From: Vicinamibacteria bacterium
GTDB lineage: Bacteria > Acidobacteriota > Vicinamibacteria > Fen-336 > JAGNNV01
Reading direction: 5' to 3'
DNA: 64,000 nucleotides
Assembly: GCA_019694155.1 (NCBI GenBank)
Contig: JAIBCN010000230.1
Location: 3,536-67,535 of the forward strand
Part shown: positions 3,012 to 24,223 of the stretch, one piece after another
Layout of the letters: each line of letters starts with the position of its first letter
How positions within the stretch are numbered: position 1 is the first letter of the stretch
Made by a program: the position numbers and the translations under genes
The notes under the pieces: model-generated
Told to the model about the DNA's origin: nothing
Seen by the model: the letters and a program-made list of their open reading frames with translations, nothing else
The model's database searches: none

Positions 3012-3016
3012 GGGTC

Positions 3017-4312
3017 CTACTTCTTGATGGTCGCGCCTGTGAGCTGGGCGATGGCCGCGAGCGTCGTCTGCGCGGCGTTCAGGCCCAGGCGGAAGTCCTT
3101 GTCCGAATAGGTCGAATACACGTCGCTCGGCTGGTGCCAGTTGGGATCCCAGCCGGCGCCCACGTGCATGCCGCGCTCGTTCTCGCGCAGGCTGATGGCG
3201 GGGACGAGATCCATGAAGGGAGTGGAGTCGGTGTTGGTCATATGGAAGCCGACCGCGGCCGGATAGTCGGTCGCGTACTTGTCGTTCGCGGCCCGGAAGA
3301 ACCAGGCGAGCTTCGCCGCCGCGTCCGCCTCTTTGGCCGTCGACTGGAACTCGATGTTCACGTCGGCCTCCAGGCGCTGCTCCTTCGGCGAGACGAACAC
3401 GGGCCGGCCGTTCGCGTCCATCACCGGTTTGCCGGCGGCGTCGAGCTGCGGGACCGGCATGCCGTGATCCCACATCATCATGTCGTGCTGGATCATGCCC
3501 AGCCACTTCGGCTCGGGGTACTTCCCCGAGCCCTTCGGGTTCTCGATACCCTGCAGGTCCTTGCGCTGAGCCACGTAGGCATAGGCGCCGTTCAGGCCCG
3601 ACTCCTCGTTGTTCCAGAGGATGAAGCGGATGGACCTCTCCGTCTCGACCCCGGGCTGATGGAAGACGCGCGCGAGTTCCATCACCAGCGCGGTGCCCGA
3701 GCCGTCGTCGTTCGCGGCCTCGCCCCAGCCGATGCCGTCCATGTGGCCGCCCACGATGTACATCTCGTTCGGGAACTTCGTGCCGATCTTGGTGCAATAG
3801 ACCTGCTCGCGCGGCGACGTGCCTTCCGGCGTCTGCTCCGTGTTGAGCGCGCGCAGCTTCTCGTCCTTCTGCGCCATGGGGTCGGTGTTGACCCCGGTGC
3901 GCGCGCGGTTGCCGAAGAGCGTGCTGCCGCCCTGCCCGGCCGGGCCGCCCAGGCCGCCGCCGCGAGGTCCACCCGGCCGGGGCGCAGGTGGCGCCGCCGG
4001 ACTCGCGCCGGGGGCCGGGGTGGGACGGGGCGTCGGCTGGGTGAATTCGTACCTGATCCGCTCGGTGTTCGCGCATCCGTAGCTCTTGAGCTGCCCTTCG
4101 ATCCAGTCCACGGCCTTGCGGTTGCGCTCCGTGCCCTGGCGGCGATCCCCGAACTGCGTCAGGCCCTTGATGGTGGCCTTGTACTTCTCGAGCTCGAGCT
4201 GCTTCACGAGAATGGCGACGGGATCGTCGGCCATGGGAACCGGTGCGGGCGCCTGCGCGTCTGCGACCTGGACGCCGAGGAGAGAAATGAGAATGCTGGA
4301 GGAAATGCGCAT
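3017..4312 (-). CDS. M28 family metallopeptidase (aminopeptidase), secreted
   Basis: Start at MRISSSILISLLGVQVADA (signal peptide), with a GGAG Shine-Dalgarno upstream. Contains HMDGIGWGEAANDDGSGTALVMELARV..NNEESGLNGA, typical of the M28 Zn-binding core, plus a Pro/Gly-rich linker. Confidence 0.7.
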   Translation of the reverse strand: MRISSSILISLLGVQVADAQAPAPVPMADDPVAILVKQLELEKYKATIKGLTQFGDRRQGTERNRKAVDWIEGQLKSYGCANTERIRYEFTQPTPRPTPAPGASPAAPPAPRPGGPRGGGLGGPAGQGGSTLFGNRARTGVNTDPMAQKDEKLRALNTEQTPEGTSPREQVYCTKIGTKFPNEMYIVGGHMDGIGWGEAANDDGSGTALVMELARVFHQPGVETERSIRFILWNNEESGLNGAYAYVAQRKDLQGIENPKGSGKYPEPKWLGMIQHDMMMWDHGMPVPQLDAAGKPVMDANGRPVFVSPKEQRLEADVNIEFQSTAKEADAAAKLAWFFRAANDKYATDYPAAVGFHMTNTDSTPFMDLVPAISLRENERGMHVGAGWDPNWHQPSDVYSTYSDKDFRLGLNAAQTTLAAIAQLTGATIKK

Positions 4313-4389
4313 GAGGGCTCCTTCTGAAAATCGCGCCGGGGTCTTTCGGGAGGGAGTGTAGCCGCTCCGCCCTCCCATAAGATCGCCGC

Positions 4390-5889
4390 ATGATGCAGAT
4401 CAAGCAAGGCCTCCTCGTCGTGGCCGCACTCTTCCTCGGCGTCGCGGCCGCCAGGGCCGAACCCGCCGGGTCGCTGGTGATCGTGGGCGCGCGGATCGCG
4501 GATGGAACGGGCGGCCCTCTTCGCGCGGCGAATGTCCGGGTGAGTGGGGGCCGCATCGCCGAGGTGGGCGAGTTCAAGCCGCTCGAGGGCGACACCGTCA
4601 TCGACGGCGAGGACCGCGTGCTCGCTCCCGGCTTCATCGATGTGCACAACCATTCGACCCAGGGCCTGGTGAAGGAGCCGCTTGCGGTCTCCCAGATCTC
4701 GCAGGGCATCACCACTCTCCTCGTCGGCCAGGACGGGAGTTCGCCCCTCCCCGTACAGGAGTACCTCGACGCGCGAAGGGCCTCACCCGCCGCGGTCAAT
4801 GTCGCCACCTGCGTCGGCCATGCGAGCGTGCGGCGCGCGGTCATGGGCGACGACTACAAGCGCGCGGCGCGGGCCGACGAGGTCAAGCGGATGGAGGAGC
4901 TCGTCGATCGCGGCTTCAAGGACGGCGCCTTCTGCCTGTCGAGCGGCCTCGAGTACGAGATCGGCGGCTACGCGACAGTGGAAGAGGTGATCGCACTCGC
5001 GAAGGTGGCGGCCCGTTACCATGGCTTCTACATCTCGCACATCCGCGACGAGGCCGACCTCGCCTTCGAGGCCATGACCGAGCTCGTGGCCATCGGCGAG
5101 CGCGCGGGGGTCGCGGTGCAGAACACGCACATCAAGCTCGGCACCGCGGGGGTGTGGGGTAAGGCGAAGGATGCCCTGAGGGTCTTCGACTCCGCGCGGC
5201 GCCGGGGCCTCGACATCACCGCCGACTGTTACCCGTGGGAAGCCTGGAGCTCGACCATCCTGGTTCTGATCCCGAACAAGAAGTATGACGATCCGAAGAG
5301 CGTGGAGCGCGGCCTCGCCGACGTGGGGGGTGCGCAGAACGTGATGATCACGTCTTACGAGAAGGACCGCTCGTACGAGTTCAAGAACATGGCCGAGATC
5401 GCGGCCGCCCGCGGAATCACGCCCGTGGATCTGTTCATCGAGATCGCGAAGAACGGCGGCGCCTCCGTGGTGGCGAAGTCGATGATGGACGAAGACATCC
5501 GCGCCTTCTACGCATGGCCCTTCACCATGGTGTCGAGCGACGGCGGCATCGAGTACCGCCACCCGCGCGGCGCCGGCACGTTCCCCCGCGTCCTCGGCCG
5601 CTTCGTGCGCGAGAGGCGCTGGCTCACCCTCGAAGAGGCGATCCGCAAGATGACCTCGCTCCCGGCCTCGCGCCTCGGGCTCAAGGACCGGGGCACGATC
5701 GCGCCCGGCCAGGTGGCGGATCTCGTCCTCTTCAATCCCGCGACCGTCATCGACAACGCGACCTTCCTGGAACCCTTCAAGCTCTCCACCGGGATCGACA
5801 AGGTGTGGGTCTCGGGCGCTCTCGCCTGGGACGAGGGAAAGTCGACGGGCGCCCGCCCCGGGCAGGTCCTCGTAGGCGCCGCGCGCTGA
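4390..5889 (+). CDS. N-acyl-D-amino-acid deacylase (D-aminoacylase) family amidohydrolase, secreted
   Basis: N-terminal signal peptide. GFIDVHNHS metal-binding motif near the N-terminus and a 499-aa amidohydrolase architecture. Confidence 0.65.
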   Translation: MMQIKQGLLVVAALFLGVAAARAEPAGSLVIVGARIADGTGGPLRAANVRVSGGRIAEVGEFKPLEGDTVIDGEDRVLAPGFIDVHNHSTQGLVKEPLAVSQISQGITTLLVGQDGSSPLPVQEYLDARRASPAAVNVATCVGHASVRRAVMGDDYKRAARADEVKRMEELVDRGFKDGAFCLSSGLEYEIGGYATVEEVIALAKVAARYHGFYISHIRDEADLAFEAMTELVAIGERAGVAVQNTHIKLGTAGVWGKAKDALRVFDSARRRGLDITADCYPWEAWSSTILVLIPNKKYDDPKSVERGLADVGGAQNVMITSYEKDRSYEFKNMAEIAAARGITPVDLFIEIAKNGGASVVAKSMMDEDIRAFYAWPFTMVSSDGGIEYRHPRGAGTFPRVLGRFVRERRWLTLEEAIRKMTSLPASRLGLKDRGTIAPGQVADLVLFNPATVIDNATFLEPFKLSTGIDKVWVSGALAWDEGKSTGARPGQVLVGAAR

Positions 5890-7401: not shown

Positions 7402-10400
7402 ATGGGAGCCAGTCGGTTTGGAGCAGGCGTGCTCTGTGTGCGCGGGTCAAGAAGGTTCCGAGGCGTGCGCGCCGTGACGCTCGCGGTTGGCAGCTGGTTG
7501 GTGTCGGGCGCCCCGGCGGTCGCGCAAGATGCCGTTCGATGGCAGCGCCCCGAAGGGGTCGAGGTTGGGCCCGGAACAGTGGCGAGAGCGGCCGGCGCCT
7601 CCAAGAGCGGAGCGACCTCCGCGCAGTTCATTACTTCCGGGAGTGGATACGCGAGCTTTACAGCCAATGAGGCCGCTGTGGCGAGGGCGTTGGGGCTGGC
7701 CCAAACGCCGCTGAACGACCTGCCGTCAATCAAGTTCGGGATTCAGCTGGGCAGCGATGGGAGCGTGGCCATCGTCGAGGATGGGGTTCCGAAGCCGCCA
7801 ATTGGAACCTATGGAACCGGCGATCAATTCACGGTGGCGGTGGAAGGCGCCAGTGTCGTCTATCGGCAGAACGCAGTCGCTCTCTACACCTCCAGCCTGG
7901 CGCCGGTTTACCCATTGTTTGCCCAGGTCGTTCTTCAGGAGAACGGCTCCCTCGGTTCATGCGTGATGGGAGGAAACCTCGGGGAGTGGGCCGAATGGAC
8001 GAATGTGGGCGCCCACGTCGCCGCTGCTCCAGGCTCGCTGGCCCGGGAACCGTTTTCGCCGGTCGCTTTGGAGGGCGCCACATCCACTCGTGGCATCACG
8101 AGTGGGGGAGGGTTCGTCGAGTTCCGGCTGAACAGCCCCACCAACTACATCTACACAGGACTGAGCCATGGAGACACGGACGGTGGCGCCGCCGACATCG
8201 ATTTTTCGTTCCGAATCTGGTCCACGTCGCTCACCGTCATCGAAAACGGCGTGACCCGTGGGAGCTTCGGCACGGCCGGAATCAACGATGTGCTTCGCAT
8301 TGGCGTCGAGAACGGCTCGATCGTGTATCGCAAGAATGGGACCGTTCTCTACACCTCGTTGACCGCGCCGCAGTTTCCGCTGACGATCGACTCTTCGGTA
8401 AACGCGGGCAGTGCAAGCGCCGCCTCCGTGACTCTCTCCGGAGCCTTGTCGGACGTCGCCGCACCTCCGGTATCCATGTCACCCTCGGGAGGCGCCTACC
8501 CTTCTTCGCAGTCGGTGACTCTCACTTCGGCCCCGGGACAGACAATCTATTACACGTTGGACGGGACCGAGCCCGGGGTCATGAGCCCGAGCGTGGCCAG
8601 TGGCGGTGCCATCACGGTGGATAGCTCGGCCCGCCTTCGCGCCCGAACCATCTCTTCTGGTCTCTGGCCCGGTACGGTGCGAAGCGCCTTCTATTCCATC
8701 GGAGCACCTCCGATTACGGAGGTGGTGGAATGGACCAATATCGGGGCAAACGTGTCTGCGCTCGCGGGCTCGATCTCACGTGATCCGAATGTGGGCTCGC
8801 CGAGCGTGAGTGAAGGCGCGGCGTCCACGAGGGGCATCAACTCGCCCGACGGGTATGTGGAGTTCAGAACCGGCGGATACTCATCCTTGGGCCTGAGCTA
8901 TGGCGATAACGGCGGTGACGCCAGCGATGTGGACTACGCCGTTCGATTTTGGGGTTCCGGCTTTTACATCACCGAAAACGGAACGAGCCTTGGCTATTTC
9001 GGGTCAACGGTAGCGGGAGATGTATTTCGCGTTGGCGTCGAAAACGGGGTGGTGACGTATCGGAAGAACGGAACGCTCGTGTACACATCGAGGATCGGGC
9101 CACGATTTCCGCTACTGGTCGACGCATCCATGCACCCGGCCGCAGGGAACGCAACCGCCGTGGCGCTCTCGGGCCACCTGGTCGATACAGCGACGGCCGC
9201 CGTGCAGATGGCGCCCGGTGGGGGCGCGTTCGGGGAGGCACAGTCGGTGACGCTCACAAGCGGGACGGGCGGGGCTACCGTCCGGTACACCCTGGACGGC
9301 AGTGAGCCCGGGCCAACGAGTCCGAGCGTCGCCAACGGTGGCAGTGTTGTCGTGCCCTCAACGGGCTGGCTCCGGGCCCGTGCCTTTGCTCCCGAAATGT
9401 GGCCGAGTGCCAGTCGCCGCGCCTTCTTCGCGATCGGCACCGCCGCAACAACAGAGGTTGTGGAGTGGGCGAATGTGGGGCCCAATTTGTCCGTCCAGGC
9501 CGGGGCGGTCTGGAGAAGCCCCAACGTAGGCTCGCCATCGCTGAACGAAGGCGCGGTCTCAACCCGCGCCATCAACTCACCGGACGGCTATGTCGAGTTC
9601 AAGGCCGGGGGATATGGATATCTGGGGCTGAGCTACGGCGATGCCGATGGAGGGGCAAATGACGTGGACTACGCGATCCAGTTCTGGGCCAGCGGGTTCT
9701 ACATCACCGAGAACGGAGTGAGCCGCGGCTACTTTGGCTCGCTGGCGGCCGGGGACATCGTGCGGGTCGCCGTTGAAAGCGGCAACGTCGTCTACCGCAG
9801 GAATGGCGCCCAGGTGTACGCCTCGGGGGTGACGCCACGATTTCCCCTTTTGGTGGATGTCTCGATGCACCCGGCGGCTGGAAACGCCACGGGGGTGACG
9901 ATATCGGGCCACCTGGTCGACGTCGCCACACTGCCTCCCTCCTTCAGCCTCCTTCCCGGCGACTACGCAACGGGGCAGGCCGTCACCGTGACCGATGCGA
10001 CTCCGGGCGCGATCATCTACTACACCACGAACGGAGCGGACCCGACCACAAACGATGCCGTTGTGGCGAACGGTGGAATCGTGACCATCGCCGATTCCGC
10101 GACTTTGAAGGCGCGAGCCTTCGCCCCTGGGCTATTTGCGAGCCGGGTGAGTTCGGCTCGTTACACGATCGGCCTGACGAAGGCCATCGAGGCGGTGACC
10201 TGGACCAATATCGTGAATGCTGGCGTAAGTGGCAATTCGATCTACAAGGCCACATCAGGCGCGGCATCAGACGGTGGGGGTGTCTCGCGACGGGCCATCA
10301 CCTCGACGGACGGCTACATGGAATTCACCGCCGGGACGCCCTGGGGGAACCGTGGCGCCGGCTTGAGTTTTGGCGACACCGATCGGAATCTGGCCGACAT

Positions 10401-13400
10401 CGACTACGCGATCTTTCCGAACAACTCCGGCACCATTCAGATTTACGAGGGGGGGGTGCCGCGGGGCGCCTTCGGAAGCTACGTGTCGAGTGACGTGCTG
10501 CGCGTCGAAGTCGAGAACGGGGTGGTGAAGTACAAGAAGAACGGCGCCCTCCTGTATGCGAGCGGCATCGCTCCCCGATACCCGCTGTTGGTGGACACAT
10601 CGCTTGCGATCAAGGGAGCCAACTTCGCCAACGTGATGATCTCAGGGGCGCTGGCTGATGTCAGTGTGGCGCCCGTGACGTTCAGTATCCCTGCCGGGGA
10701 CTACACCGAGCCGCAGGTGGTGACGCTCAACGCACCCACACTTGGCGCGGCGATCTACTACACGACCAATGGCGCGGATCCGACCACGAGCGATACACCG
10801 ATAGCGAGCGGGGCGACGGTGTCGGTCACGGGCACCATGACCCTCAAGGCCAGGGCTTTCCTGGCCGGCCTGTTTGCGAGCCCCACCACGGCCGCGCGCT
10901 ACACCATCGGCCTTGGCTCAACCACCGAGGCGGCCGCCTGGACGAACACCGTGAATGTGACCGCGACGGGGAACTCGATCACCAAGACCTCCGGGGGCTC
11001 ATCGGGTTTCGATGCCGGGGCAGTATCGACCCGGGCGATCTACTCGACGGATGGATATGTCGAACTCTCGGCTGGCACGGCTTTGAGCGGCGTTCGCTAT
11101 GCCGGACTGAGCAACGGCGACACGGATGTTTCGTACGGCGACATCGACTACGCCTTCTGCCCCGCGGGATCAAACGGCCTGCAGATCTGCGAGGGAGGCG
11201 TGGTGCGAGGCACCTTCGGATCCTACCTGGCAACCGATACCCTGCGAGTGGGGGTCGAGCAGGGCGTCGTCACGTACCGAAAGAACGGTGCTTTCCTGTA
11301 CGCGAGCCCTATCCCGCCCGCCTATCCGCTCCTGGTCGACACGACGCTCTACTATCTCTCTCACTCGATCTCGAACGTCTTCATCTCTGGCGCACTCGTT
11401 GACTCGCGGCTGCCCGCGCCCACAGCCGACCCCGCGGCCGGCGCATACGTGCCTCCCGTCAACGTCAGCCTCACGACCGTACCCGGCGCCACGATTCGCT
11501 ACACCACGGATGGCTCGACGCCGACCAGCGCCTCACCCCTCTATGGAGGGACGCCGATCGTCCTCGGAGCATCGACTTCAATCAAGGCAATCGCGGACGC
11601 CCCTGGCTACCTGACGAGCCCGGTCATGACCGCCGCGTACGTGGCTTTGGCTGCGACCCCGACGATCACGCCGAATGGCGGGGCCTTCATGGACTCGGTC
11701 CCCGTCACCCTGGCGACGGCCACTTCCGGCGCGACGGTCCGTTACACGTTGGACGGAACCGAGCCGACGACGGCATCGGTCGCATATTCCACTCCCCTTC
11801 TCCTTGTGTCCACGGCAACCCTCATGGCGAAGGCGTTCCACACCACGCTGGCGCCGAGCAGTACCGCGACGGCATTGTTCACGATAGCCCCAACCCCGCC
11901 GACGCTCTCTCCTGGGAGTGGAACCTACACGACGAGCGTCAGCGTGGCGATGAGCGGGCCGGCGGGGGCGTCCATCTATTACACCACCGACGGAAGCACG
12001 CCGACGCTACTTTCCACCCCGTATGCCGGCGCCGTTGTTCTCACGGAAACGACGACGATCAAAGCAGCAGCGTTCCTGGCTGGAGGGCAGAGCAGCGCCG
12101 TATCTACGGGCGTTTACAGCATCAAGGTGGCGGATCCGGTGTTGAGCCCGGCGTCTGGAAGGTGGTACACGCAGCAGACAATCGGGGTGACCACCGCGAC
12201 GCCTGGGGCGACGATCTACTACACGACGGATGGTACAGAGCCGACGACGAGTTCTGCCACGGTCGCCGGCACCGGCCAGCTGCTGATCGACCGAAGCATG
12301 GCAGTCAAGTTCAAGGCCTTCAAGGCAAACACCCAGCCATCGGCTACAGTGCATGCGAGTTACCTGATCACCGGCCAGATGGCGGCCGGCGACTACCACA
12401 CCCTCGCCCTGAAGGCCGATCGCACGGTGTGGGCCTGGGGTACGAACAACTACGGCCAGGTAGGCGATGGGTCCGCCACCGGCACGGTCCGGTCGAGTCC
12501 GATTCAGATAACGGCCCTGAGTGACATCGTCGAGATCGCCGCGGGCCGCTACTCGTCATACGCTCTCAAGGCCGACGGCACGGTCTGGGCCTGGGGATAC
12601 AACGTGTCCGGCGAGTTGGGAGATGGGAGCAACACCAATCGCTACCTGCCGGTTCAGGTGTCCGGGCTCACGGGCGTCCAGGCCATTGGCGCCGGGGGCT
12701 CGCATGGGTTGGCCGTCCTCTCGGACGGCACCGTGCGCACCTGGGGCCTCAACAACTACGGCCAGTTGGGACGTGGGAACAGCACGAATTCCAATGTTCC
12801 CGTGACCGCTACCGGGCTCGGCAGCGTGCGATCCGTGACGGGAGGCGACTCGCACAGCCTGGCGCTGAGAACGGACGGAACGGTTGCAGGATGGGGCTGG
12901 GGGGGGCTGGGGCAGCTTGGCAACGGAGGACAGAACAGCAATGTGCCGGTCACCCTGTCGGGCGTTGTGGCCACAGCCCTGGCCGCCAATGGGCACTCCT
13001 CGTTTGCCATAGTGGGCGCCACTCGACAACTGAAGGCCTGGGGCTTGAACAGCAACGGCCAGCTGGGCGATGGATCCACAACGAACCGCCTCACGCCGGT
13101 GCTGATCACATCGAACGTCCGCGCGGTGGCCGCGGGCGGAAGCCACATGGCGATGGTGGGCTCGGACGGACGGCTTCAGGGGTCGGGGAACAATGGCCTT
13201 CGTCAGCTCGGAGACGCGACAACGCTGAGCCGGACTTTACCCACCCGCTCGCGCGTCAGCAGGTTTGTCGTGACCCTAGCAGAGGGTTACTACCACTCGC
13301 TGGCCGTGGCCCCTGACGGTGCGGTCTGGGGGACGGGCAACAACATCAACGCGCAGTTGGGGCTCGGGAACAGCGTCTCGCCCGTCCTTCCCACGATGAT

Positions 13401-13782
13401 TCCTGCGTTCTCTCTGTTCAATGCAACCGAACTCCAGCAGGACCTCGACAATGACGGCCTGAACCTGTTCGAGGAGTTCATGTTCGGAACGGACCCGCTT
13501 CTGGGAGACACCAACGGCAACGGGCTGTCGGATGGGGCGGAGTGTGCCCTGGGATTCGACGCGACCGCTCTGGACAGTGATGGAGACGGACTCACGAACG
13601 ACGCGGAGGTCGTTGCCGGAACGAACCCCTTCTCCGCGGACACCGACGGCGATGGGTACGCCGATGGAGTGGACCAGCTTCCGCTCGACAGCAGCCAACA
13701 CACGTTGTCCCCGACGCCCGGCGACACAACGCCGCCCGTGATCACGCTCATCAAGCCCACTGGGGCGATATCCATTCCGTAG
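7402..13782 (+). CDS. giant secreted multi-repeat surface protein (8 chitobiase/hexosaminidase-C-like domains, 7-blade RCC1 propeller, thrombospondin-3-like Ca-binding repeats)
   Basis: ATG 7402 is preceded by a GGAGGG Shine-Dalgarno and a signal peptide follows.
- Six copies of an unrecognised ~150-aa module (W.N.G...GA.STR.I.S.DGYVEF...GLS.GD.DGG..D.DYA...).
- Eight copies of the GATIYYTTDGTEPT signature (CHB_HEX_C-like).
- Seven RCC1 blades (..H.LAL..DGTVWAWG.N.YGQLG.G).
- C-terminal D.DNDG / D.DGDG Ca-binding repeats. Confidence 0.8.
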   Translation: MGASRFGAGVLCVRGSRRFRGVRAVTLAVGSWLVSGAPAVAQDAVRWQRPEGVEVGPGTVARAAGASKSGATSAQFITSGSGYASFTANEAAVARALGLAQTPLNDLPSIKFGIQLGSDGSVAIVEDGVPKPPIGTYGTGDQFTVAVEGASVVYRQNAVALYTSSLAPVYPLFAQVVLQENGSLGSCVMGGNLGEWAEWTNVGAHVAAAPGSLAREPFSPVALEGATSTRGITSGGGFVEFRLNSPTNYIYTGLSHGDTDGGAADIDFSFRIWSTSLTVIENGVTRGSFGTAGINDVLRIGVENGSIVYRKNGTVLYTSLTAPQFPLTIDSSVNAGSASAASVTLSGALSDVAAPPVSMSPSGGAYPSSQSVTLTSAPGQTIYYTLDGTEPGVMSPSVASGGAITVDSSARLRARTISSGLWPGTVRSAFYSIGAPPITEVVEWTNIGANVSALAGSISRDPNVGSPSVSEGAASTRGINSPDGYVEFRTGGYSSLGLSYGDNGGDASDVDYAVRFWGSGFYITENGTSLGYFGSTVAGDVFRVGVENGVVTYRKNGTLVYTSRIGPRFPLLVDASMHPAAGNATAVALSGHLVDTATAAVQMAPGGGAFGEAQSVTLTSGTGGATVRYTLDGSEPGPTSPSVANGGSVVVPSTGWLRARAFAPEMWPSASRRAFFAIGTAATTEVVEWANVGPNLSVQAGAVWRSPNVGSPSLNEGAVSTRAINSPDGYVEFKAGGYGYLGLSYGDADGGANDVDYAIQFWASGFYITENGVSRGYFGSLAAGDIVRVAVESGNVVYRRNGAQVYASGVTPRFPLLVDVSMHPAAGNATGVTISGHLVDVATLPPSFSLLPGDYATGQAVTVTDATPGAIIYYTTNGADPTTNDAVVANGGIVTIADSATLKARAFAPGLFASRVSSARYTIGLTKAIEAVTWTNIVNAGVSGNSIYKATSGAASDGGGVSRRAITSTDGYMEFTAGTPWGNRGAGLSFGDTDRNLADIDYAIFPNNSGTIQIYEGGVPRGAFGSYVSSDVLRVEVENGVVKYKKNGALLYASGIAPRYPLLVDTSLAIKGANFANVMISGALADVSVAPVTFSIPAGDYTEPQVVTLNAPTLGAAIYYTTNGADPTTSDTPIASGATVSVTGTMTLKARAFLAGLFASPTTAARYTIGLGSTTEAAAWTNTVNVTATGNSITKTSGGSSGFDAGAVSTRAIYSTDGYVELSAGTALSGVRYAGLSNGDTDVSYGDIDYAFCPAGSNGLQICEGGVVRGTFGSYLATDTLRVGVEQGVVTYRKNGAFLYASPIPPAYPLLVDTTLYYLSHSISNVFISGALVDSRLPAPTADPAAGAYVPPVNVSLTTVPGATIRYTTDGSTPTSASPLYGGTPIVLGASTSIKAIADAPGYLTSPVMTAAYVALAATPTITPNGGAFMDSVPVTLATATSGATVRYTLDGTEPTTASVAYSTPLLLVSTATLMAKAFHTTLAPSSTATALFTIAPTPPTLSPGSGTYTTSVSVAMSGPAGASIYYTTDGSTPTLLSTPYAGAVVLTETTTIKAAAFLAGGQSSAVSTGVYSIKVADPVLSPASGRWYTQQTIGVTTATPGATIYYTTDGTEPTTSSATVAGTGQLLIDRSMAVKFKAFKANTQPSATVHASYLITGQMAAGDYHTLALKADRTVWAWGTNNYGQVGDGSATGTVRSSPIQITALSDIVEIAAGRYSSYALKADGTVWAWGYNVSGELGDGSNTNRYLPVQVSGLTGVQAIGAGGSHGLAVLSDGTVRTWGLNNYGQLGRGNSTNSNVPVTATGLGSVRSVTGGDSHSLALRTDGTVAGWGWGGLGQLGNGGQNSNVPVTLSGVVATALAANGHSSFAIVGATRQLKAWGLNSNGQLGDGSTTNRLTPVLITSNVRAVAAGGSHMAMVGSDGRLQGSGNNGLRQLGDATTLSRTLPTRSRVSRFVVTLAEGYYHSLAVAPDGAVWGTGNNINAQLGLGNSVSPVLPTMIPAFSLFNATELQQDLDNDGLNLFEEFMFGTDPLLGDTNGNGLSDGAECALGFDATALDSDGDGLTNDAEVVAGTNPFSADTDGDGYADGVDQLPLDSSQHTLSPTPGDTTPPVITLIKPTGAISIP
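7984..12375 (+). repeat. intragenic tandem domain-repeat region (approx. 5 X-modules + 8 CHB_HEX_C-like modules; about 50-70% aa identity between copies)
   Basis: Periodic recurrence of VVEWTN.G and IYYTTDG motifs in the translated giant ORF. Confidence 0.6.
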
Positions 13783-13800
13783 GAAGGCTTCGACAGATCT

Positions 13801-16800
13801 ATGCTGAAACGAACGAGAGTTCTCTCTGCCTTGGTCCTAGCCAGCGCGCTGTCGTTGGCTCCGGCAGACGAGGTAGCCGCGCAAATCCAGGTGGACTGTA
13901 CGGTTGCGCCAATGTTCACGCCCAGCCCGAACTATTGCCTTGGTGTTCAATACGTGTTCCCACCGAACGCCTGTGGGTGCTCCAATCGGCTCTTCGCCAC
14001 GTCGTGCGGTGGGGGTGCGATTACGGGGACAACGCAGGGCGGCGTGGCCGGGTGTCTCCTTTCTTTGGCTTGCAACATCGTTGAAACGGAGACGCCCTGC
14101 AACGGCGTCCTTGAGCCCACGCGTCCTCCGAAGACGCCGAAGGTGCCCTGTCTGGATTGCGGTGAGCCCGTCAACGTGACGACGGGGACGATGTACTTCA
14201 CCCACCGCGACGCCACCATCGGACGCCTCTCGTTCACGCGTACCTTCAGCACGCAGCGATTGTCGGCAAATCGCTATGGGATGTTTGGGCCCGGCTGGAA
14301 CACCGACTTCGAAAAGCGGCTGAGGAGTCTGGGAACCGGCGTTCTCGAGTACCGCGACGCCGATGGCGAGCCCACGTATTTTCAGGATCGAGACCTCGAT
14401 GGGAACTTCGAACAGTATGTTCCTTTCGGAAAGGACTCTTGGATTCTGGACACCGGTGTGGGCTACCAGCTGGTGCGCCGCGCGGGCGGGCACGAAGACT
14501 ACTCGACCACCGGCGTGCTCCTTGCGGAGACGGACGCAGCGGGAACCACGACGACGTACGCCCGTGACGGCAGCGCCCGGCTGACTTCGGTGACCAGAGA
14601 GGGCCGATCGTTCACCCTCACCTATTCGGGCGCCAACCTCAAGCCCGCCACCCTTCAGGGACCGGGCGGCGAGACGCTTGCGACCTATACCTACGAAACG
14701 GCGTCGGGCCGACTTGCCGCGGTTGACTATCCGGAGAGCGCGGGCTATCGGTACACCTACACCTCGGACGGCAAGGTGAGCTTCGTTGACGACGCCGACG
14801 GACGGCCCAGTGAGGCTCACGAGTACGACGCGCAGGGGCGTGCCACCACCTCGGAGATCGGCGACGGCCGGCAGAAGCTCACCTTCTCATATGACACAGT
14901 GAACAAGAAGACGACCGTCACCGACGCGCTCGGGCGACAAACGATCTACGAGTTCCAACTCGTGAAGCACGCGCAGGTATTGAAGAAGCTCATAGGGCCA
15001 TGCGCCGGCGCATGCGGACCGGCGGATGAGACGCGCGAGTGGACGTATGACGCCAGCACCGGGACACTGACGACGATGAAGGACCAGGCGGGAAAGATCT
15101 GGAGCTACACCTATGATCCGGTGACCCTGGACATGCTGACGGAGACCGATCCCCTGGCGCAGGTCACGACCTATTCCTATGACGCGCAAGGGCGCATGCT
15201 CACGCGAACTGGGCCGGACGGAGCGGTCACGACCTACGTTCAGAGCGACGCTGGGCCGACCAGCATCACCCAGAAAGTGGCGGCTTCACCGCTGGTCACC
15301 CGAACGACGGCGATTGCGTACTACGCCACGGCGGATGCCAAAAACGGAAAGGTCCACACGATCCAGGATCCCCGGGGGAAGGTGACCACCATGGACTACG
15401 ACGCCACCAAGGGAGACCTCCTGTCGGTCACGGATCCGCTCGGCCACGCGACCACATTCGGCTACGACGAGTCGCCGAGCCCCGCTGGGAGGGGCTTGCG
15501 GACGAGTGTGACCGATGCCCTCGGCCATGTCACCAAGACGGTGTACGAAGGCCGCAACCGGGTGAAGAAAGTAGTCAATCACGACAACACGTTCACCGAG
15601 TTCGGATATGACGCGGCCGGACGCAGGTCGACGGTGACGGATCCCATGGGTCGGGTGACCCGATACATCTACGATCGATACGGGCGTCTCGATACGGTGG
15701 TGGATCCGATGAATCAGACCACGCGTTATTCATATGACCTGATGGGGAATCTGCTCACGCTCACGGATGCGAAGAGCCAGACGACGACGTTCGAGTATGA
15801 CAGCCACGACCGGGTGAAGAAGACAATCTACCCAGGCGGGGCGTATGAGACGTTCACGTACGACTCGCGGGGGAGGCTTGAGACGATGGTCGACCGGAAG
15901 AACGTGACCACGACCTACGCCTACGACGACCTCGGGAGGCTCTTGGGGAAGACGTTCTCGAACGACCCATCGAATACGCCGCCGTTCAGCTACACCTACG
16001 ATGCGGCGGGAAGGATGCTCACGGCCGCGAACGGGACGGATACCCTCACGTGGACCTACAACCTGGCGGGGGAGTTGCTGAGCGAGCAGAGCGTGAAGAA
16101 CGCCAGCACGGTCGCCTACACCTACGACGACGGCGGCAACCGGCTGTCGGTGAGCCTGGACGGGACGCTCTTCGTCACGTACGCCTACGACGACGCGTCG
16201 AGGCTCACGACGATCACCCGCGGATCGAACGTGTTCGGCTTCGCCTACGACAACGCAAACCGAAGAACCAGCATGAGTTATCCAAACGGAGTCGATACGA
16301 CGTACACGTACGACACGCTCAATCGCCTCACGAACCTCGCGGCGACGAAGACGAGCACCGGAACGCCGATCACGAACTTCGGCTACCAGTACGACGCCGC
16401 GGGCAACCGGACGCAGAAGTCCACCCTCGACTACACGGAGGACTATGGGTACGACCCCCTCTACCGCCTGACCCGCGCGGACCGCACGAACCCAGGCGCC
16501 ACCCCGCCGAATCAGTGGACGTGGAGCTACGACGCGGTGGGCAACCGGACGAGCGCCCAGAAGGACAACGAGGCGACCACGTCCACCCACAACGAGAAGA
16601 ACCAGCTGCTACAGACGAGCGGAGGGGGGAAGATGCTCTGGCGCGGGGTCCTGGACGAGCCCGGGACCGCGACGTTCAACGCGGCCTCTGCGTCGATCAA
16701 CGGTCAGCCCGCGAGGATGCTTGCGGGGAACGTGTTCGAAGCGACGCTGGACCTGCCCGCGGGAGCGAACACGGTGACGATTCAAGCGCAGGACGGGAGC

Positions 16801-17919
16801 GGGAATGTGTCGAGCAAGAGCTACTCGGTGAACGTGCTCGGCGTGCCCGCGACCTACACCTACGACGCGAACGGCAACCTCGCGACGAAGACGGAAGGCG
16901 CGGACGCGTGGGCCTATCAGTGGAACGCTCTGAATCAGCTGACCGCCGTCTCGAAGAACGGCGTGATGGTCGCGTCCTACGGATATGACCCCGACGGGCG
17001 GCGTGTTGAGAAGACCGGTCCCGGACGGCTTCTCGCATGGGTCTACGATGGCGAGGATGTCCTGCGCGAGACCTCGACGTCTAGCGGCGTCAATATCTAC
17101 CAATGGCATGTGCACGGCCACGGTATAGACGAACCGCTCGCGACGGAGACGCTCAACGGAGTGTCTTACAGACACGGTGATGCCATCAACGCGGACCGAC
17201 GTCTAACCGATGCAAGCGGCAATGTCCTCGGCGGAGTGTCTACGGACCCCTGGGGCAACGGGGACTCGTCCTCTATGGGACCTTATGGCTTCGGAGGGAG
17301 AGAATGGGATCCTGAGGCACAGATGCATTTCTTCAGAGCTCGGTGGTACGACCCAAAGATCGGGCGATTTATCTCAGAAGACCCAATTGGATCGAGGGGC
17401 GGCTCTAACCTATTCTCCTACGTCGATTCGTCACCCCCGAACTTCGTTGATTCGCTCGGCCTATTCAAGATGAGCGGCTTTCCGCGGGACGGAGTTGCGG
17501 TATCAAAAGTAATCGACGCGATGGCGGCCGTTCGCAGGAGACTGACTGAACAGCCCTGTTGTACGGCCGACGCGCCTGACATCCTGAACTACATGGAGAA
17601 CGTCGACGTCGACTTCAAGCCCGACCTAAACATCAAGCGACAGAAGAAAGGGCAGAAACTGGCCTGTGCAACTGCTCAAGACACGAATTTCTTCTTCTTC
17701 AAGGTCCGAAAGATCCACTTCGCCCCCGAATCGTTCGGCCCAGAATGCGCGGCGCTCTCTCTGGAATGCATGCTCGTGCATGAGTACACCCATTTCGTGA
17801 CGGGCTATTCCGATACTGACCCTCGATATCACGGCCGTGAGTACAAGAATCAATTCACGTGTTTCGGCTGCGGCGACGGCACGGTCCCGCCGGGCGAGGG
17901 ACCGCGGGGGAAAGAATGA
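13801..17919 (+). CDS. RHS/YD-repeat polymorphic toxin (Sec signal, no PAAR) with HExxH metallopeptidase-like C-terminal domain
   Basis: Signal peptide followed by a Cys-rich region and many YD repeats (TYTYDANGNL, YAYDDLGRL). The RHS core ends in RARWYDP..GRFISEDPIG..DSLGL. After the DPxGL boundary comes a ~150-aa lower-GC tip containing LVHEYTHF (HExxH). Confidence 0.85.
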   Translation: MLKRTRVLSALVLASALSLAPADEVAAQIQVDCTVAPMFTPSPNYCLGVQYVFPPNACGCSNRLFATSCGGGAITGTTQGGVAGCLLSLACNIVETETPCNGVLEPTRPPKTPKVPCLDCGEPVNVTTGTMYFTHRDATIGRLSFTRTFSTQRLSANRYGMFGPGWNTDFEKRLRSLGTGVLEYRDADGEPTYFQDRDLDGNFEQYVPFGKDSWILDTGVGYQLVRRAGGHEDYSTTGVLLAETDAAGTTTTYARDGSARLTSVTREGRSFTLTYSGANLKPATLQGPGGETLATYTYETASGRLAAVDYPESAGYRYTYTSDGKVSFVDDADGRPSEAHEYDAQGRATTSEIGDGRQKLTFSYDTVNKKTTVTDALGRQTIYEFQLVKHAQVLKKLIGPCAGACGPADETREWTYDASTGTLTTMKDQAGKIWSYTYDPVTLDMLTETDPLAQVTTYSYDAQGRMLTRTGPDGAVTTYVQSDAGPTSITQKVAASPLVTRTTAIAYYATADAKNGKVHTIQDPRGKVTTMDYDATKGDLLSVTDPLGHATTFGYDESPSPAGRGLRTSVTDALGHVTKTVYEGRNRVKKVVNHDNTFTEFGYDAAGRRSTVTDPMGRVTRYIYDRYGRLDTVVDPMNQTTRYSYDLMGNLLTLTDAKSQTTTFEYDSHDRVKKTIYPGGAYETFTYDSRGRLETMVDRKNVTTTYAYDDLGRLLGKTFSNDPSNTPPFSYTYDAAGRMLTAANGTDTLTWTYNLAGELLSEQSVKNASTVAYTYDDGGNRLSVSLDGTLFVTYAYDDASRLTTITRGSNVFGFAYDNANRRTSMSYPNGVDTTYTYDTLNRLTNLAATKTSTGTPITNFGYQYDAAGNRTQKSTLDYTEDYGYDPLYRLTRADRTNPGATPPNQWTWSYDAVGNRTSAQKDNEATTSTHNEKNQLLQTSGGGKMLWRGVLDEPGTATFNAASASINGQPARMLAGNVFEATLDLPAGANTVTIQAQDGSGNVSSKSYSVNVLGVPATYTYDANGNLATKTEGADAWAYQWNALNQLTAVSKNGVMVASYGYDPDGRRVEKTGPGRLLAWVYDGEDVLRETSTSSGVNIYQWHVHGHGIDEPLATETLNGVSYRHGDAINADRRLTDASGNVLGGVSTDPWGNGDSSSMGPYGFGGREWDPEAQMHFFRARWYDPKIGRFISEDPIGSRGGSNLFSYVDSSPPNFVDSLGLFKMSGFPRDGVAVSKVIDAMAAVRRRLTEQPCCTADAPDILNYMENVDVDFKPDLNIKRQKKGQKLACATAQDTNFFFFKVRKIHFAPESFGPECAALSLECMLVHEYTHFVTGYSDTDPRYHGREYKNQFTCFGCGDGTVPPGEGPRGKE
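16448..16935 (+). repeat. direct repeat (copy 1) shared with orphan rhs cassette at 22451..22935
   Basis: Nucleotide alignment is near-identical across about 480 nt (GGGTACGACCCCCTCTACCGCCTGACCCGCGCGGACCG... through ...GGAAGGCGCGGACGCGTGGG), with a short diverged patch around the two-thirds point. Confidence 0.8.
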
Positions 17920-18353
17920 ACTTTTCAGTGAGATGTCTCGCAATCGCTTTGCTTTTCCTGCCCGCGCCTTCGTCGGCGTTCACCTGCATGCCCATTCGGC
18001 TCCTAGTCGAGGTACCCTCCCCTGAAGCGGGCTGGGCTTTGGACTTCGTCGCGAAGCCCGACCGCAAGACCCTAAAGGTCGCCCGCGAAGATGCGACTTC
18101 CATGACGTACGCGGTCTTCTTCGACACCCTTCGTGTGCGACCAGGCAAGGCGCAGGACTGCTCATGGGAGCCTTCGTCTCTTGTCGTTCGAATTCGTCAC
18201 GAGGATGGGACGGTGCGGGAGGATCAGATTCCATTCCCTCAGGGCTTTGTCCGAATTGAGGGAACCGCCCGGAGCTTCCGAGCGACGCGGCGCGCCTCTC
18301 TCGCTGAAAAACCGCCCGGCCTCAGTAAGGGCCCAGAAACCCCTCGCCGTTGA
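17916..18353 (+). CDS. putative cognate immunity protein for the RHS HExxH toxin (secreted)
   Basis: ATGA overlap with the rhs stop (ATG 17916, TGA 17917-19). Signal peptide [21 protein letters not shown]. 145 aa with no recognisable domain. Confidence 0.5.
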
Positions 18354-20667: not shown

Positions 20668-20884
20668 TGATCGCTCAAAGGCGGTTGTTGGAAGTCATTC
20701 GGAAGCTGGTCTAGACGGGCGCGATGATCGGAACGTCCGCCACCGCGACCTGGGCCAGCAGGGCAAGCTGTGCCTGCACCCGTTCTCTGGAGATTGCCCC
20801 GTGTTGAGTAGCGGGTGGGTCGGTGAGCGAGTGGTCGCACACGCGTGGTACGGGGGCGCGCCGTCGTTTGTGGCCTTGCACATG

Positions 20885-20960
20885 CGGGCTGTCGAGCCTC
20901 GCGCAGCCGGGCGTCCGTGGTCGCGATCCATCGCGCCTGGAGGCTCGGGGCGGCTCGGCG
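20885..20960 (+). other. conserved intergenic element, copy 2 (see 18415..18490)
   Basis: Aligned to copy 1. Located 220 nt downstream of gene C and 220 nt upstream of gene D. Confidence 0.3.
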
Positions 20961-21716: not shown

Positions 21717-22231
21717 TGAGCGCTGAACTCTCACTTCAGCAGGCCGGGGCTTCCGCCCCGGCCGTTTCCGCTTCGCAGTCGGCCGCTGGGCCTGGTGCCG
21801 AGCTTGCAGCAGTCCTCGCCGGTTCGGCCGCGGCGGAGTCCGCCGCTCGCGAGGACTCGATCCTCCTCGACGCTGAGAAGCTCGAGGTCTACGCGTTGGC
21901 CTTGGAGCTTCACGCATTCGCCGCATCGAAGGTCCCCACGCTGAGCCGTGTCCTCAAGGACCAGCTTGAGCGTGCCAGCCTCAGCGTGGTCTTGAACATC
22001 GCAGAGGGCGGGGGCCGTCGAAGCCGCAAGGACAAGTCGCGGCACTACACGTACGCGCGAGGCAGCGCCACGGAGGTTGCTGCCTGCTTCGACGTGCTCA
22101 AGATCCGGAAGCTCGCTCCGGCGTCCGAGTGCGCTCGTGGCCGAACCCTCGCGCTGCGCGTGGTCCAGATGCTCACGAAGCTCTGCGCATCACTTCAGCC
22201 GAAGTCCACCGAAGCGCAGGAGGCGGCTTGA
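21716..22231 (+). CDS. four-helix-bundle protein (23S rRNA intervening-sequence / Avd-like family)
   Basis: C-terminal 120 aa (LEVYALALELHAFA..LKDQLERASLSVVLNIAEGGGRRSRKDKSRHYTYARGSATEVAACFDVLKIRKL) matches the four-helix-bundle, DGR-Avd-like family. The N-terminal Ala/Ser-rich extension leaves the start uncertain. Confidence 0.55.
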   Translation: MSAELSLQQAGASAPAVSASQSAAGPGAELAAVLAGSAAAESAAREDSILLDAEKLEVYALALELHAFAASKVPTLSRVLKDQLERASLSVVLNIAEGGGRRSRKDKSRHYTYARGSATEVAACFDVLKIRKLAPASECARGRTLALRVVQMLTKLCASLQPKSTEAQEAA

Positions 22232-22431
22232 GCCTCACGCAGTCGTGTTTCAACGCTCGTCAGGCTAAGGCAGGACTGCGTTCGTCTCTCAAGAAGGTGG
22301 CGGTCGGCCAGCCCTTTTCGTGGGCCGAACGCGTTTGTCGTCAATCCGGCCTTCGGCCGGAACGGAGACGGACGGGACACGGGGCACGTTGCACGGCCGA
22401 GGTGGTGCGGCTGGTGACCTCGCCTTCGGCT

Positions 22432-23868
22432 TCGTCACCCAGCCACACCCTCGGGTACGACCCCCTCTACCGCCTGACCCGCGCGGACCGCACGAACCCA
22501 GGCGCCACCCCGCCGAATCAGTGGACGTGGAGCTACGACGCGGTGGGCAACCGGACGAGCGCCCAGAAGGACAACGAGGCGACCACGTCCACCCACAACG
22601 AGAAGAACCAGCTGCTACAGACGAGCGGAGGGGGGAAGATGCTCTGGCGCGGAACGTTGAGCGAGCCCGGGACGGCGACGTTTAGCGCAGCCTCGGCGTC
22701 GATCAACGGCCAGCCCGCGAGGATGCTTGCGGGGAACGTGTTCGAAGCGACGCTGGATCTGCCCGCGGGAGCGAACACGGTGACGATTCAAGCGCAGGAC
22801 GGGAGCGGGAATGTGTCGAGCAAGAGCTACACGGTGAACGTGCTCGGCTCTCCCGCGACCTACACCTACGACGCGAACGGCAACCTCGCGACGAAGACGG
22901 AAGGCGCGGACGCGTGGGTCTACACCTGGAACGCGCTGAATCAGCTGATTGCGGTAACGAAGAACGGCGTGACGCAGGCGACGTATGCCTACGACCCTGC
23001 CGGAAGGCGCGTTCAGAGATCGGCGAGCGTGACCACGACTTGGACCTACGACGACGAAGACGTCATTCGCCAGGCTGCTGGTCCCGTGGTATCGCTTGTT
23101 CTTCACGGGCCCGGCGTCGACGAGACGCTTGCAACTGAGGCACAGGGGATTACGACGTTCCTGCAAGTGGACGGCCTCGGATCCATTGTTCGTCATACGT
23201 CAACGTCTGGCGCCGTCGCGCAATCCGTTGGGTACGATGCTTGGGGCGTTGCCACTAGCACGGCCCCAGACACGTATGGTTTCACGGGAAGAGAGTGGGA
23301 CGCCGATGTGGCTCTCTATTACCTCCGCGCACGGTGGTACGACCCGAGGAGCGGCGGTTTCCTTGGGCCGGACCCGTCGATGACCCCTGGCCTTCCCGGA
23401 CACTACCTTTATGTGGGTGCCAACCCAACGGGATTCAGGGATCCGTCGGGACTGAAGCGCGAAGCGACGTGGATCGACCCGCCGGGCATCAAGGACTTCT
23501 CAGCTACGTATCAAGGGCCGATATATCCGGGGGAGTATTGGTCCCTCTTCCCGCCACAGGTCGGACTATATGGCGAATGGTGGCTCTTCAAAGGGAATGT
23601 CTCAGGGACAGTGAAATGCACGGATACTGACAAGTGTGCTGGGGATCAAACGAAGATCAAGAGTGTCAAGCTTCCGATCTGGAAGACCATTGGCATCGGG
23701 GTTGGAATGACAATGTATCCGTACATTCACTACATGAAGCGAGGCAAGCACATCATTGACGCCTTCCAGGAGGCCTACGACGCCTACTACAATTACTGGG
23801 TCCAGATCGCGAAGAACATGCTTGAAGATCCGATGACGTGGTGTCGAGTCCTCGGGGGGTTCAACTGA
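22432..23868 (+). CDS. orphan rhs C-terminal cassette (5'-truncated RHS core + alternative lower-GC C-terminal toxin domain)
   Basis: Homology to the main rhs begins at LGYDPLYRLTRADRT. The RHS core ends RARWYDPRSGGFLGPDP..DPSGL and is followed by a ~135-aa tip at about 50% GC with no motif recognised. There is no N-terminal signal or repeats. The upstream in-frame part of ORF 22129.. is probably non-coding. Confidence 0.7.
   Translation, partial: SSPSHTLGYDPLYRLTRADRTNPGATPPNQWTWSYDAVGNRTSAQKDNEATTSTHNEKNQLLQTSGGGKMLWRGTLSEPGTATFSAASASINGQPARMLAGNVFEATLDLPAGANTVTIQAQDGSGNVSSKSYTVNVLGSPATYTYDANGNLATKTEGADAWVYTWNALNQLIAVTKNGVTQATYAYDPAGRRVQRSASVTTTWTYDDEDVIRQAAGPVVSLVLHGPGVDETLATEAQGITTFLQVDGLGSIVRHTSTSGAVAQSVGYDAWGVATSTAPDTYGFTGREWDADVALYYLRARWYDPRSGGFLGPDPSMTPGLPGHYLYVGANPTGFRDPSGLKREATWIDPPGIKDFSATYQGPIYPGEYWSLFPPQVGLYGEWWLFKGNVSGTVKCTDTDKCAGDQTKIKSVKLPIWKTIGIGVGMTMYPYIHYMKRGKHIIDAFQEAYDAYYNYWVQIAKNMLEDPMTWCRVLGGFN
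22451..22935 (+). repeat. direct repeat (copy 2) of rhs segment 16448..16935
   Basis: See copy 1. Identity decays gradually 3' of about 22935 while protein-level RHS-core similarity continues. Confidence 0.8.
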
Positions 23869-23869
23869 C

Positions 23870-24223
23870 ATGCGCGGGCAGGGACTAGTCAAGGTTGGAC
23901 TTGGAGTGGCCTTGCTCGTCGCGTTTGGCGTCGTAGGCACCCTGGCCGTTCTCGCGCTCGACGGTCACTTTGCCGTCGCTCGACCCGAGCTGGAATGCGA
24001 GATCGTCAGGCGGATTGCGGCGAGCAGCACACTGGATGGAACCCCCATTTCGTCAGTCTGGGAGATCAAGGTCGCGCAAGGGCGAGTGGAGAAGTTCACG
24101 TTTCAAGGGTCTCCACCCTTGCACGCTGGCGACCGCGTCAAGGTCCGCTACGTCGAGGCGAGGCTCTCCGGAGAGAAGGGCGTCACCTCCTATTACATCA
24201 TCCAAAGACACCCGGTGCCGTAG
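23870..24223 (+). CDS. putative immunity protein for orphan toxin (membrane-anchored)
   Basis: Starts 2 nt after the orphan stop. 117 aa with N-terminal TM helix VGLGVALLVAFGVVGTLAVLAL. Confidence 0.45.
   Translation: MRGQGLVKVGLGVALLVAFGVVGTLAVLALDGHFAVARPELECEIVRRIAASSTLDGTPISSVWEIKVAQGRVEKFTFQGSPPLHAGDRVKVRYVEARLSGEKGVTSYYIIQRHPVP

Follow-up and report, generated by a model that had tools for sequence, protein, structure and literature searches.

What can a giant secreted protein be for when its gene stops just short of a gene for an RHS polymorphic toxin? The question is raised by a 64,000-nucleotide stretch of DNA (the window) from a metagenome-assembled genome (MAG) of the Vicinamibacteria (Acidobacteriota), in which an open reading frame (ORF) for a protein of 2126 amino acids, hereafter the giant, ends 18 nucleotides (nt) before the ATG of an rhs gene. 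This ORF has an ATG start and a TAG stop (13780-13782), and its cluster includes the NCBI entry MBX7187475.1, which is named there only 'chitobiase/beta-hexosaminidase C-terminal domain-containing protein'. An earlier sequence-only reading of the window had proposed that the giant carries six copies of an unassigned domain and could be an adhesin or scaffold presenting the RHS toxin, by analogy with TcB, the propeller-containing partner of RHS-like Tc toxins. Our analysis confirms the observations behind this proposal and supports its interpretation in part. We lean towards a reading in which the giant is a Sec-exported, non-enzymatic, multivalent binding protein that would form the surface- or target-binding subunit of a split RHS polymorphic toxin system.

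Architecture and export of the giant

From its N- to its C-terminus, the giant consists of a signal peptide, two modules of about 150 residues in direct succession, four further modules that are each preceded by a CHB_HEX_C_1 domain, four more CHB_HEX_C_1 domains in tandem, an RCC1 propeller and a TSP3 tail. The repeat counts that had been read from the sequence (six modules, eight CHB_HEX_C-like domains, seven RCC1 repeats, TSP3 repeats) were all recovered by Pfam or, for the modules, by a profile free of window sequences with shuffling controls. In Pfam, CHB_HEX_C_1/Fn3_assoc matched eight stretches (E 1.5e-112), RCC1 matched seven repeats (E 2e-56; WD40_RLD 248 bits against a cut-off of 150), and TSP3_bac scored 30.1 bits against a cut-off of 25; an NCBIfam scan of the giant gave nothing relevant beyond these domains. 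Four DxDxDG motifs of the TSP3 region are kept across the relatives, and calcium binding is predicted for this region. Neither a GH20 catalytic domain nor any other catalytic domain was found by Pfam or NCBIfam across the 2126 residues, the accessory CHB_HEX_C_1 family alone being present in its eight copies.

Secretion of the giant, as proposed earlier, is supported by an N-terminus that reads by eye as a Sec-type signal peptide (an Arg-rich n-region, then AVTLAVGSWLVSGAPAVA, then AVA|QD), and by module-bearing relatives in which classical signal peptides stand immediately ahead of the first module. Anchoring by a PEP-CTERM, type IX secretion system (T9SS) or autotransporter mechanism was ruled out by inspection, and neither a transmembrane helix nor a barrel follows the tail.

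The repeated module belongs to a large, uncatalogued family

Modules were detected with a profile made from unrelated metagenomic proteins alone, all window sequences being excluded. This profile matched the six copies with E-values from 1e-33 to 6e-58, and the weakest copy, when shuffled 200 times, reached at most 9 bits. Four blocks previously noted as conserved (WTN.G..V...G, GA.STR.I.S.DGYVEF, GLS.GD.DGG..D.DYA and VYRKNG.L.Y.S) are all present in the consensus of the module alignment. The description of the domain as unassigned also stands: in Pfam, SPRY (PF00622) included, there were zero matches at E<=10 for the six window modules and ten divergent relatives, NCBIfam was without any family for the module, and searches of PDB sequences with module profiles returned chance matches only, plus the marginal hit 26gp_Q. 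As judged from these sequence searches, the module family is absent from the copies of Pfam-A, NCBIfam and PDB that were searched.

A profile of 49 domain sequences matched 9245 cluster representatives (50% identity) at E<=1e-3, and 2388 of them still matched at E<=1e-30, which defines a very large extracytoplasmic domain family of more than 9000 such clusters. The largest array holds 25 modules in one protein of 6469 amino acids (P0114). The partner domains of the module (PKD, Calx-beta, TSP3, RTX, F5/8 type C, SprB, LRR and M23 peptidase) are all extracytoplasmic, and because of these partners and the ordinary signal peptides of the relatives we regard the module as an extracytoplasmic domain. 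Family members are unnamed or named after other domains, for instance 'chitobiase C-terminal domain', 'RCC1 family', 'PKD repeat', 'DUF4215', 'hypothetical' and 'ribosomal protein S4E'. The last of these is the JGI name of P0114 itself, and P0124 (6283 amino acids) is a 'DUF4215 domain-containing protein' at NCBI; neither name reflects the module arrays.

Some members depart from the common pattern. P0129 (WP_437968808.1, from Sorangium sp. So ce260) joins six modules to an M23 peptidoglycan metallopeptidase, which places the module on another envelope-attacking enzyme. In one subfamily a Cys-x2-Cys loop (..GCDGCADAGA..) replaces the ..GW.NAGA.. segment, and this loop may form a disulfide or hold a metal on what is taken to be the binding face. 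Among solved structures, only the chain 26gp_Q, a 620-residue 'Structural protein' (also in entries 26la and 44nx), matches the module profile, and that marginally (residues 107-195, E 0.0023); the match takes in the motifs G.S and GxS.G. This chain may be a relative with a solved structure, possibly a viral one. A tblastn search of 50,697 phage records with the module found nothing. A scan of genome contigs with the whole giant returned relatives of the RCC1 region only and no orthologue. Its only long match, L001 from a Fibrobacteres MAG, has 19 RCC1 repeats, CHB and TSP3; L001 contains no Pfam-unassigned stretch long enough for a module (the module profile was not run on it), and no long ORF lies downstream (an RHS search was not run).

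The module is predicted to adopt a SPRY-like fold

AlphaFold2 modelling of module 3, with an alignment of 49 sequences, yielded an all-beta sandwich with a predicted local distance difference test score (pLDDT) of 94.3 and a predicted template-modelling score (pTM) of 0.90. The sequence-only reading had asked whether a beta-sandwich or lectin fold was to be expected. The fold is not a new one: Foldseek searches of the PDB with this model ranked SPRY domains first (RanBP9/10, TRIM PRY-SPRY, DDX1, SPSB2 and SPRYD7), with template-modelling (TM) scores of 0.65-0.74 and E-values down to 3e-6. Nearly all of the top ten matches were SPRY domains (TM 0.68-0.74), and L-type lectins, CBM66 and PL7 lyases came after them in the ranking. 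Among predicted viral structures (BFVD), the best match was a marine phage protein annotated as ash2-like (TM 0.86, 31% identity), followed by phage minor tail and tail-fibre proteins. On the strength of the model, the module thus has a known fold, the SPRY-like branch of the concanavalin-type beta-sandwich.

At the sequence level, homology between the module and SPRY is no more than suggested. We collected 120 PF00622-annotated proteins, recovered RanBP9/10 and SPRYSEC sequences from the PDB, and built two successive SPRY profiles for hhalign, the first on 3 PDB sequences and the second on 56 proteins with the PF00622 annotation. The module aligned to SPRY in the structurally expected register with P-values from 3e-4 to 1e-2 and probabilities of 4-40%, the SPRY profile being narrow (RanBP9-like only). 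The motif order G.Y.E ... GDV..V.V....V.Y.KNG ... YP is in register with the SPRY domain of RanBP9.

Most informative tail-bearing relatives are followed by RHS genes

We then considered whether the position of the giant gene ahead of rhs is peculiar to the window. Assigning RHS identity at the relatives' loci from precomputed Pfam hits or phmmer, we found that ten of the eleven informative relatives with the same C-terminal tail are followed by an RHS gene at a distance of 10-45 nt (modules confirmed in nine, the remaining one being cut at its N-terminus). These loci are the window, P0181, P0176, P0144, P0175, P0127, P0156, P0122, P0141 and L021. The gap measures 10-18 nt at P0181, P0176, P0144, P0175, P0127 and P0156. 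P0122, which has modules, PKD and the tail without RCC1 or CHB, is followed by an RHS-repeat gene after 10 nt; P0141, which has modules, CHB, PKD and the tail without RCC1, is followed by one after 45 nt; and in L021, RCC1 and the tail of an N-terminally cut protein precede the RHS gene. The giants are only about 40-45% identical, and the flanking genes are unrelated at every locus. The adjacency that the sequence-only reading had wished to see compared among related genomes is therefore conserved, and the family that takes part in it is uncatalogued.

Because P0122 and P0141 keep the RHS neighbour without RCC1, the RHS link is not tied to the propeller; it tracks the subfamily with the conserved TSP3 tail. 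When metagenomes were scanned with the tail alignment, the generic TSP3 pattern dominated the matches, and the whole tail was covered at only five of 28 loci. Among these five, an RHS gene was found downstream only in L021, the others besides L024 being too short or giving no RHS match. At L021, three more same-strand segments homologous to RHS lie past the tail-bearing gene and the RHS gene (L021 6696-12139), and they look like the orphan array of the window.

Module arrays fused to RHS toxins, and a conserved tail

In three proteins, the module array and the RHS toxin are parts of one chain. WP_265595231.1 of Verrucomicrobium sp. BvORR106 (cluster P0218), annotated as 'RHS repeat-associated core domain-containing protein', is a single chain of 4554-4913 amino acids. 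Behind a signal peptide come eight modules that alternate with TSP3 repeats, then DUF6531, the RHS repeats and the core, and lastly a C-terminal domain; no RCC1 domain was seen in it. The metagenomic giants P0151 (5606 amino acids) and P0179 (5233 amino acids) each have 14 module matches and a C-terminal Rhs_assc_core (47.7 and 37.9 bits, respectively, against an NCBIfam cut-off of 32.5). The fusions were found through source annotation and a count of YD motifs, an earlier phmmer screen with the window RHS having missed them. Since fusion of two parts elsewhere is classical evidence that the separately encoded parts act together, these proteins argue that the giant and the RHS protein of the window do so. 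A functional link between the two is in our view well supported, and the proposal of an adhesin or scaffold presenting the RHS toxin gains from the fusions, while the TcB basis on which it had been placed does not hold: the giant has neither RHS repeats nor a SpvB domain, and relatives without RCC1, the fusion included, keep the RHS link.

The tail shared by the RHS-linked relatives has the consensus D.TDGDG..DG.D..PLD ... D.TPP.ITL.[EK]P..A...P-stop. In an AlphaFold2 model of the C-terminal 134 residues, pLDDT was 95-97 in the TSP3 repeats but 71-78 in the final 25 residues, and Foldseek found no significant fold match for this model. We regard the terminal segment D.TPP.ITL.[EK]P..A...P-stop as a candidate docking element. 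A tail profile did not match the Verrucomicrobium fusion proteins save for generic TSP3, which would fit, as a weak argument, with a tail that is needed only when the parts are separate.

How the two proteins might work together can be outlined as follows. The giant would be co-expressed, and would act together, with the Sec-exported RHS toxin encoded downstream of it and with the candidate immunity gene of that toxin. Its six SPRY-like modules would bind cell-surface glycans or proteins multivalently, with the Ig-like CHB_HEX_C_1 domains and the calcium-loaded TSP3 segments serving as spacers or a stiffened stalk and the RCC1 propeller lying between them. The giant and the RHS protein would associate physically, possibly via the conserved C-terminal tail, so that the giant holds or targets the toxin at the surface and makes it locally more concentrated on target cells. 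Elsewhere, in other phyla, this module array forms the N-terminal part of the RHS toxin polypeptide itself.

Alternative explanations and points against a binding subunit

A number of findings weigh against the giant as the binding subunit of a toxin. In 118 of the 150 top family members both the tail and RCC1 are missing, and most of them show no RHS link; P0116, which consists of modules only, sits amid polysaccharide genes. Two tail-bearing proteins, P0118 and L024 (a LamG/CHB protein), have no RHS neighbour, even with 1.8 kb available downstream of L024. On the side of the toxin, the RHS N-terminus differs among loci, a different region of about twice the length being present in the five syntenic loci compared. 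The part of the toxin closest to the tail of the giant is thus not conserved, and a docking domain to match the tail is not apparent. For the giant itself, neither a membrane anchor nor a cell-wall anchor was identified. Furthermore, the syntenic loci are metagenomic, so that their independence is judged from sequence divergence, and both the giant-RHS contact and the binding of a surface ligand are inferred.

Several of these findings would be expected if the giant were a general-purpose secreted lectin or adhesin, serving the biofilm matrix, the cohesion of cells or the binding of polymers. It would then be mechanistically independent of the toxin, and the two genes would merely travel together on a mobile competition island. 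The majority of family members without an RHS link and the tail-bearing proteins without an RHS neighbour fit such a role. So does the genomic setting, since the guanine-plus-cytosine (GC) content is 0.60-0.64 over 8-24 kb against 0.67-0.69 elsewhere in the window, the region ends in putative rve transposase genes, and transposase or integrase genes trail the cassette at P0175, P0127 and P0122; low GC content and transposases together suggest a mobile island. Hitch-hiking, however, leaves unexplained why a spacing of 10-45 nt is retained across ten loci at about 40% identity and with different flanks, and it does not explain the three single-chain fusions of modules to RHS. We consider this explanation possible and give it perhaps one chance in a few.

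Two further explanations appear much less probable. In a TcB-like arrangement, the RCC1 propeller would cap or gate the RHS cage and pass the toxin to a translocator as in Tc toxins, a thought that is invited by the seven-repeat propeller encoded immediately upstream of an RHS cage and by TcB, teneurins and mosquito SGS1, in which propellers sit on RHS shells as decoration or closure (PMC9935623). We think it improbable, as Pfam finds neither RHS repeats nor a SpvB domain in the giant, the RHS protein brings a DUF6531 plug and a core of its own, P0122 and P0141 as well as the Verrucomicrobium fusion dispense with RCC1, and no TcA-like gene was found among the scanned neighbours (the window being scanned in part). 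It is, if anything, more doubtful still that the giant is a glycoside hydrolase accessory protein or an enzyme acting on polysaccharide, as its NCBI name suggests. Eight CHB_HEX_C_1 domains and a module fold common to lectins, CBM66 and PL7 lyases would agree with that name, but CHB_HEX_C_1 is an Ig-like accessory domain, a catalytic domain is missing from the entire protein, and the neighbours are toxin and candidate immunity genes rather than genes for carbohydrate use. A binding subunit of a split RHS toxin thus remains the reading that we favour.

The RHS gene and the surrounding toxin island

The giant and rhs genes look like one operon. This is based on the gap of exactly 18 nt between them, as had been reported, on the GAAGG motif ahead of the rhs ATG, and on the finding that no terminator or promoter matched within the gap (Table 1). 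At its other end, the rhs gene overlaps the start of the following ORF as ATGA.

Table 1. Coordinates of features in the window (aa, amino acids; nt, nucleotides; E, E-value)
Feature	Position	Strand	Basis or remark
Giant protein gene, 2126 aa	7402..13782	+	ORF; NCBI MBX7187475.1
Sec-type signal peptide, aa 1-42	7402..7527	+	By eye; relatives alike
SPRY-like module 1, aa 43-190	7528..7971	+	Divergent copy, 27-33% identical to the others; E 1.3e-33, window-free profile
SPRY-like module 2, aa 195-349	7984..8448	+	E 2e-41
CHB_HEX_C_1/Fn3_assoc domain 1, ~aa 355-438	8464..8715	+	Approximate bounds; Pfam and motif positions
SPRY-like module 3, aa 440-593	8719..9180	+	Modelled copy; profile, AlphaFold2 pLDDT 94.3, fold matches
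CHB_HEX_C_1 domain 2, ~aa 600-683	9199..9450	+	Pfam and motif positions
SPRY-like module 4, aa 685-838	9454..9915	+	Alignment, profile
CHB_HEX_C_1 domain 3, ~aa 845-928	9934..10185	+	Pfam and motif positions
SPRY-like module 5, aa 930-1084	10189..10653	+	E 6e-58
CHB_HEX_C_1 domain 4, ~aa 1090-1174	10669..10923	+	Pfam and motif positions
SPRY-like module 6, aa 1176-1332	10927..11397	+	E 2e-56
CHB_HEX_C_1 domains 5-8, four in tandem, ~aa 1338-1639	11413..12318	+	Pfam and motif positions
RCC1 beta-propeller, 7 repeats, ~aa 1640-2000	12319..13401	+	RCC1, WD40_RLD 248 bits
TSP3 repeats (predicted calcium-binding) and conserved extreme C-terminal tail	13417..13779	+	Pfam, alignment of relatives, AlphaFold2
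Intergenic gap, 18 nt	13783..13800	+	GAAGG Shine-Dalgarno-like motif; no terminator or promoter match
RHS polymorphic toxin, 1372 aa	13801..17919	+	Signal peptide, Cys-rich N-domain, DUF6531, RHS/YD shell, Rhs_assc_core, ~150-aa C-terminal domain with HEYTH
Candidate immunity protein, 145-aa ORF	17916..18353	+	ATG overlaps rhs TGA (ATGA); N-terminal hydrophobic signal-like segment; no family match
Orphan rhs C-terminal cassette	22129..23868	+	From ~nt 22453 67% identical to RHS aa 883-1221, then another C-terminal domain
Candidate second immunity gene, 117-aa ORF	23870..24223	+	Directly past orphan cassette; transmembrane-like N-terminus; no family

Scans with Pfam and NCBIfam assigned DUF6531, RHS_repeat in 15 stretches and the core (TIGR03696, 70.7 bits) to the RHS protein. 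As for its export, neither PAAR or VgrG for type VI secretion (T6SS), nor LXG or WXG of the type VII secretion system (T7SS), nor SpvB or TcdB was found in these scans, in which the rest of the window was partly covered; the signal peptide alone was found. The RHS C-terminal domain, the Cys-rich N-domain (a short segment at window positions 13880-14160, RHS residues ~28-120) and both candidate immunity ORFs gave no family match. For the C-terminal domain, a SprT-like hit at E 0.13 was not significant, though consistent with the HEYTH motif. If the 145-residue ORF does encode an exported immunity protein, the HEYTH toxin would act outside the cytoplasm.

The orphan rhs C-terminal cassette speaks for the polymorphic-toxin character of the locus. 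Over the first ~180 residues of its homologous part (corresponding to RHS residues 883-1060) it is nearly identical to the RHS protein; it then diverges and ends in an unrelated C-terminus, and by its layout the stretch 22129-24223 would be a typical displaced toxin/immunity pair. Two ORFs lie between the RHS gene and this cassette, one (19249-19914) with a weak RiboL-PSP-HEPN match (E 0.007) and one (20801-22231) of which the C-terminus matches 23S_rRNA_IVP (E 3.5e-16). The two ORFs at the end of the region, the putative rve transposase genes (24509-25846 and 26123-27931, both on the minus strand), have an HTH_23 match in common; the former also matches rve (30.0 bits against 32.6) and rve_3 (23.1 against 26.5), both below their Pfam cut-offs. 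On the other side of the giant gene, a minus-strand ORF (1752-4844) whose C-terminus is that of a class V aminotransferase overlaps a D-aminoacylase gene (4390-5889, plus strand). Its reading as a protein of 1030 amino acids is over-extended, because the gene called on the Logan contig starts near 4312.

Relation to known toxin systems and SPRY domains

A search of the available literature for a pairing of such giants with RHS proteins found nothing. In organisation, the window resembles the MafA-MafB system of Neisseria, in which a Sec-exported polymorphic toxin has a conserved upstream partner. MafA is a small surface lipoprotein, whereas the partner in the window is a repeat protein of 2126 amino acids, and there is no sequence or domain relationship between the systems. 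In Neisseria, each full-length toxin gene is preceded by the conserved partner gene (PMC3482391).

With the RHS/YD polymorphic toxins that are exported by Sec and the type II secretion system (T2SS) (Zhang et al. 2012, PMC3482391; Bacillus subtilis WapA type), the rhs gene of the window shares a signal peptide, DUF6531, RHS repeats, Rhs_assc_core, a variable C-terminal domain, a coupled small ORF and an orphan C-terminal cassette. In that survey, Sec-dependent RHS toxins are not credited with any signature neighbour (PMC3482391), and the window system differs from them by its giant, probably a binding protein, which is present as a conserved upstream partner or as an N-terminal fusion. For Sec-exported RHS toxins without T6SS, T7SS or Tc partners, such a protein is a concrete candidate for the step of targeting, and one that can be tested.

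TcB/TcC, teneurins and SGS1 have in common with the window the combination of an RHS shell with a beta-propeller and receptor domains of the lectin or carbohydrate-binding module (CBM) type; in mosquito SGS1, for instance, the RHS cage is decorated with propellers and lectin/CBM domains (PMC9935623). In those proteins, however, the receptor domains belong to the same chain or are inserted into the shell, while in the window they are part of a separate upstream protein. Moreover, the propeller of the window is of the RCC1 type and dispensable for the RHS link, and SpvB, TcA, NHL and EGF parts are missing.

With SPRY/B30.2 domains (PF00622), the module shares, as predicted, the bent beta-sandwich of two antiparallel sheets and the SPRY topology. 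It differs in giving no PF00622 match at E<=10 and a profile-profile probability of merely 4-40%, and it is bacterial, extracytoplasmic, present in arrays of up to 25 copies and tied to RHS toxins. SPRY and Laminin_G3 domains are placed in phage tail fibres (PMC7824862), and the origin of SPRY has been traced to phage tail proteins (PMC8195603; PMC7824862); a role in recognition would be common to these lectin-like tail domains and the module.

What is new in the window is an RHS toxin system of which the presumed binding part is an uncatalogued SPRY-like array in a separate upstream protein. More tentatively, and with less confidence than we have in a binding role as such, the giant and the RHS protein could represent a new two-component, T6SS-independent mode of RHS delivery in diderm phyla, namely Acidobacteriota, with fused forms in Verrucomicrobiota and in metagenomic giants of low GC content that may belong to Bacteroidota. 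The target range would then be set by the SPRY-like array as the receptor determinant, the tail would dock the RHS cage non-covalently, and no earlier conflict system of prokaryotes might have SPRY-like sensors as its basis. In their survey, Kaur et al. (2021) wrote that SPRY-like domains in the service of a prokaryotic conflict system had so far not come to their notice (PMC8195603); in contrast, the present locus would place SPRY-like recognition domains inside a bacterial conflict system.

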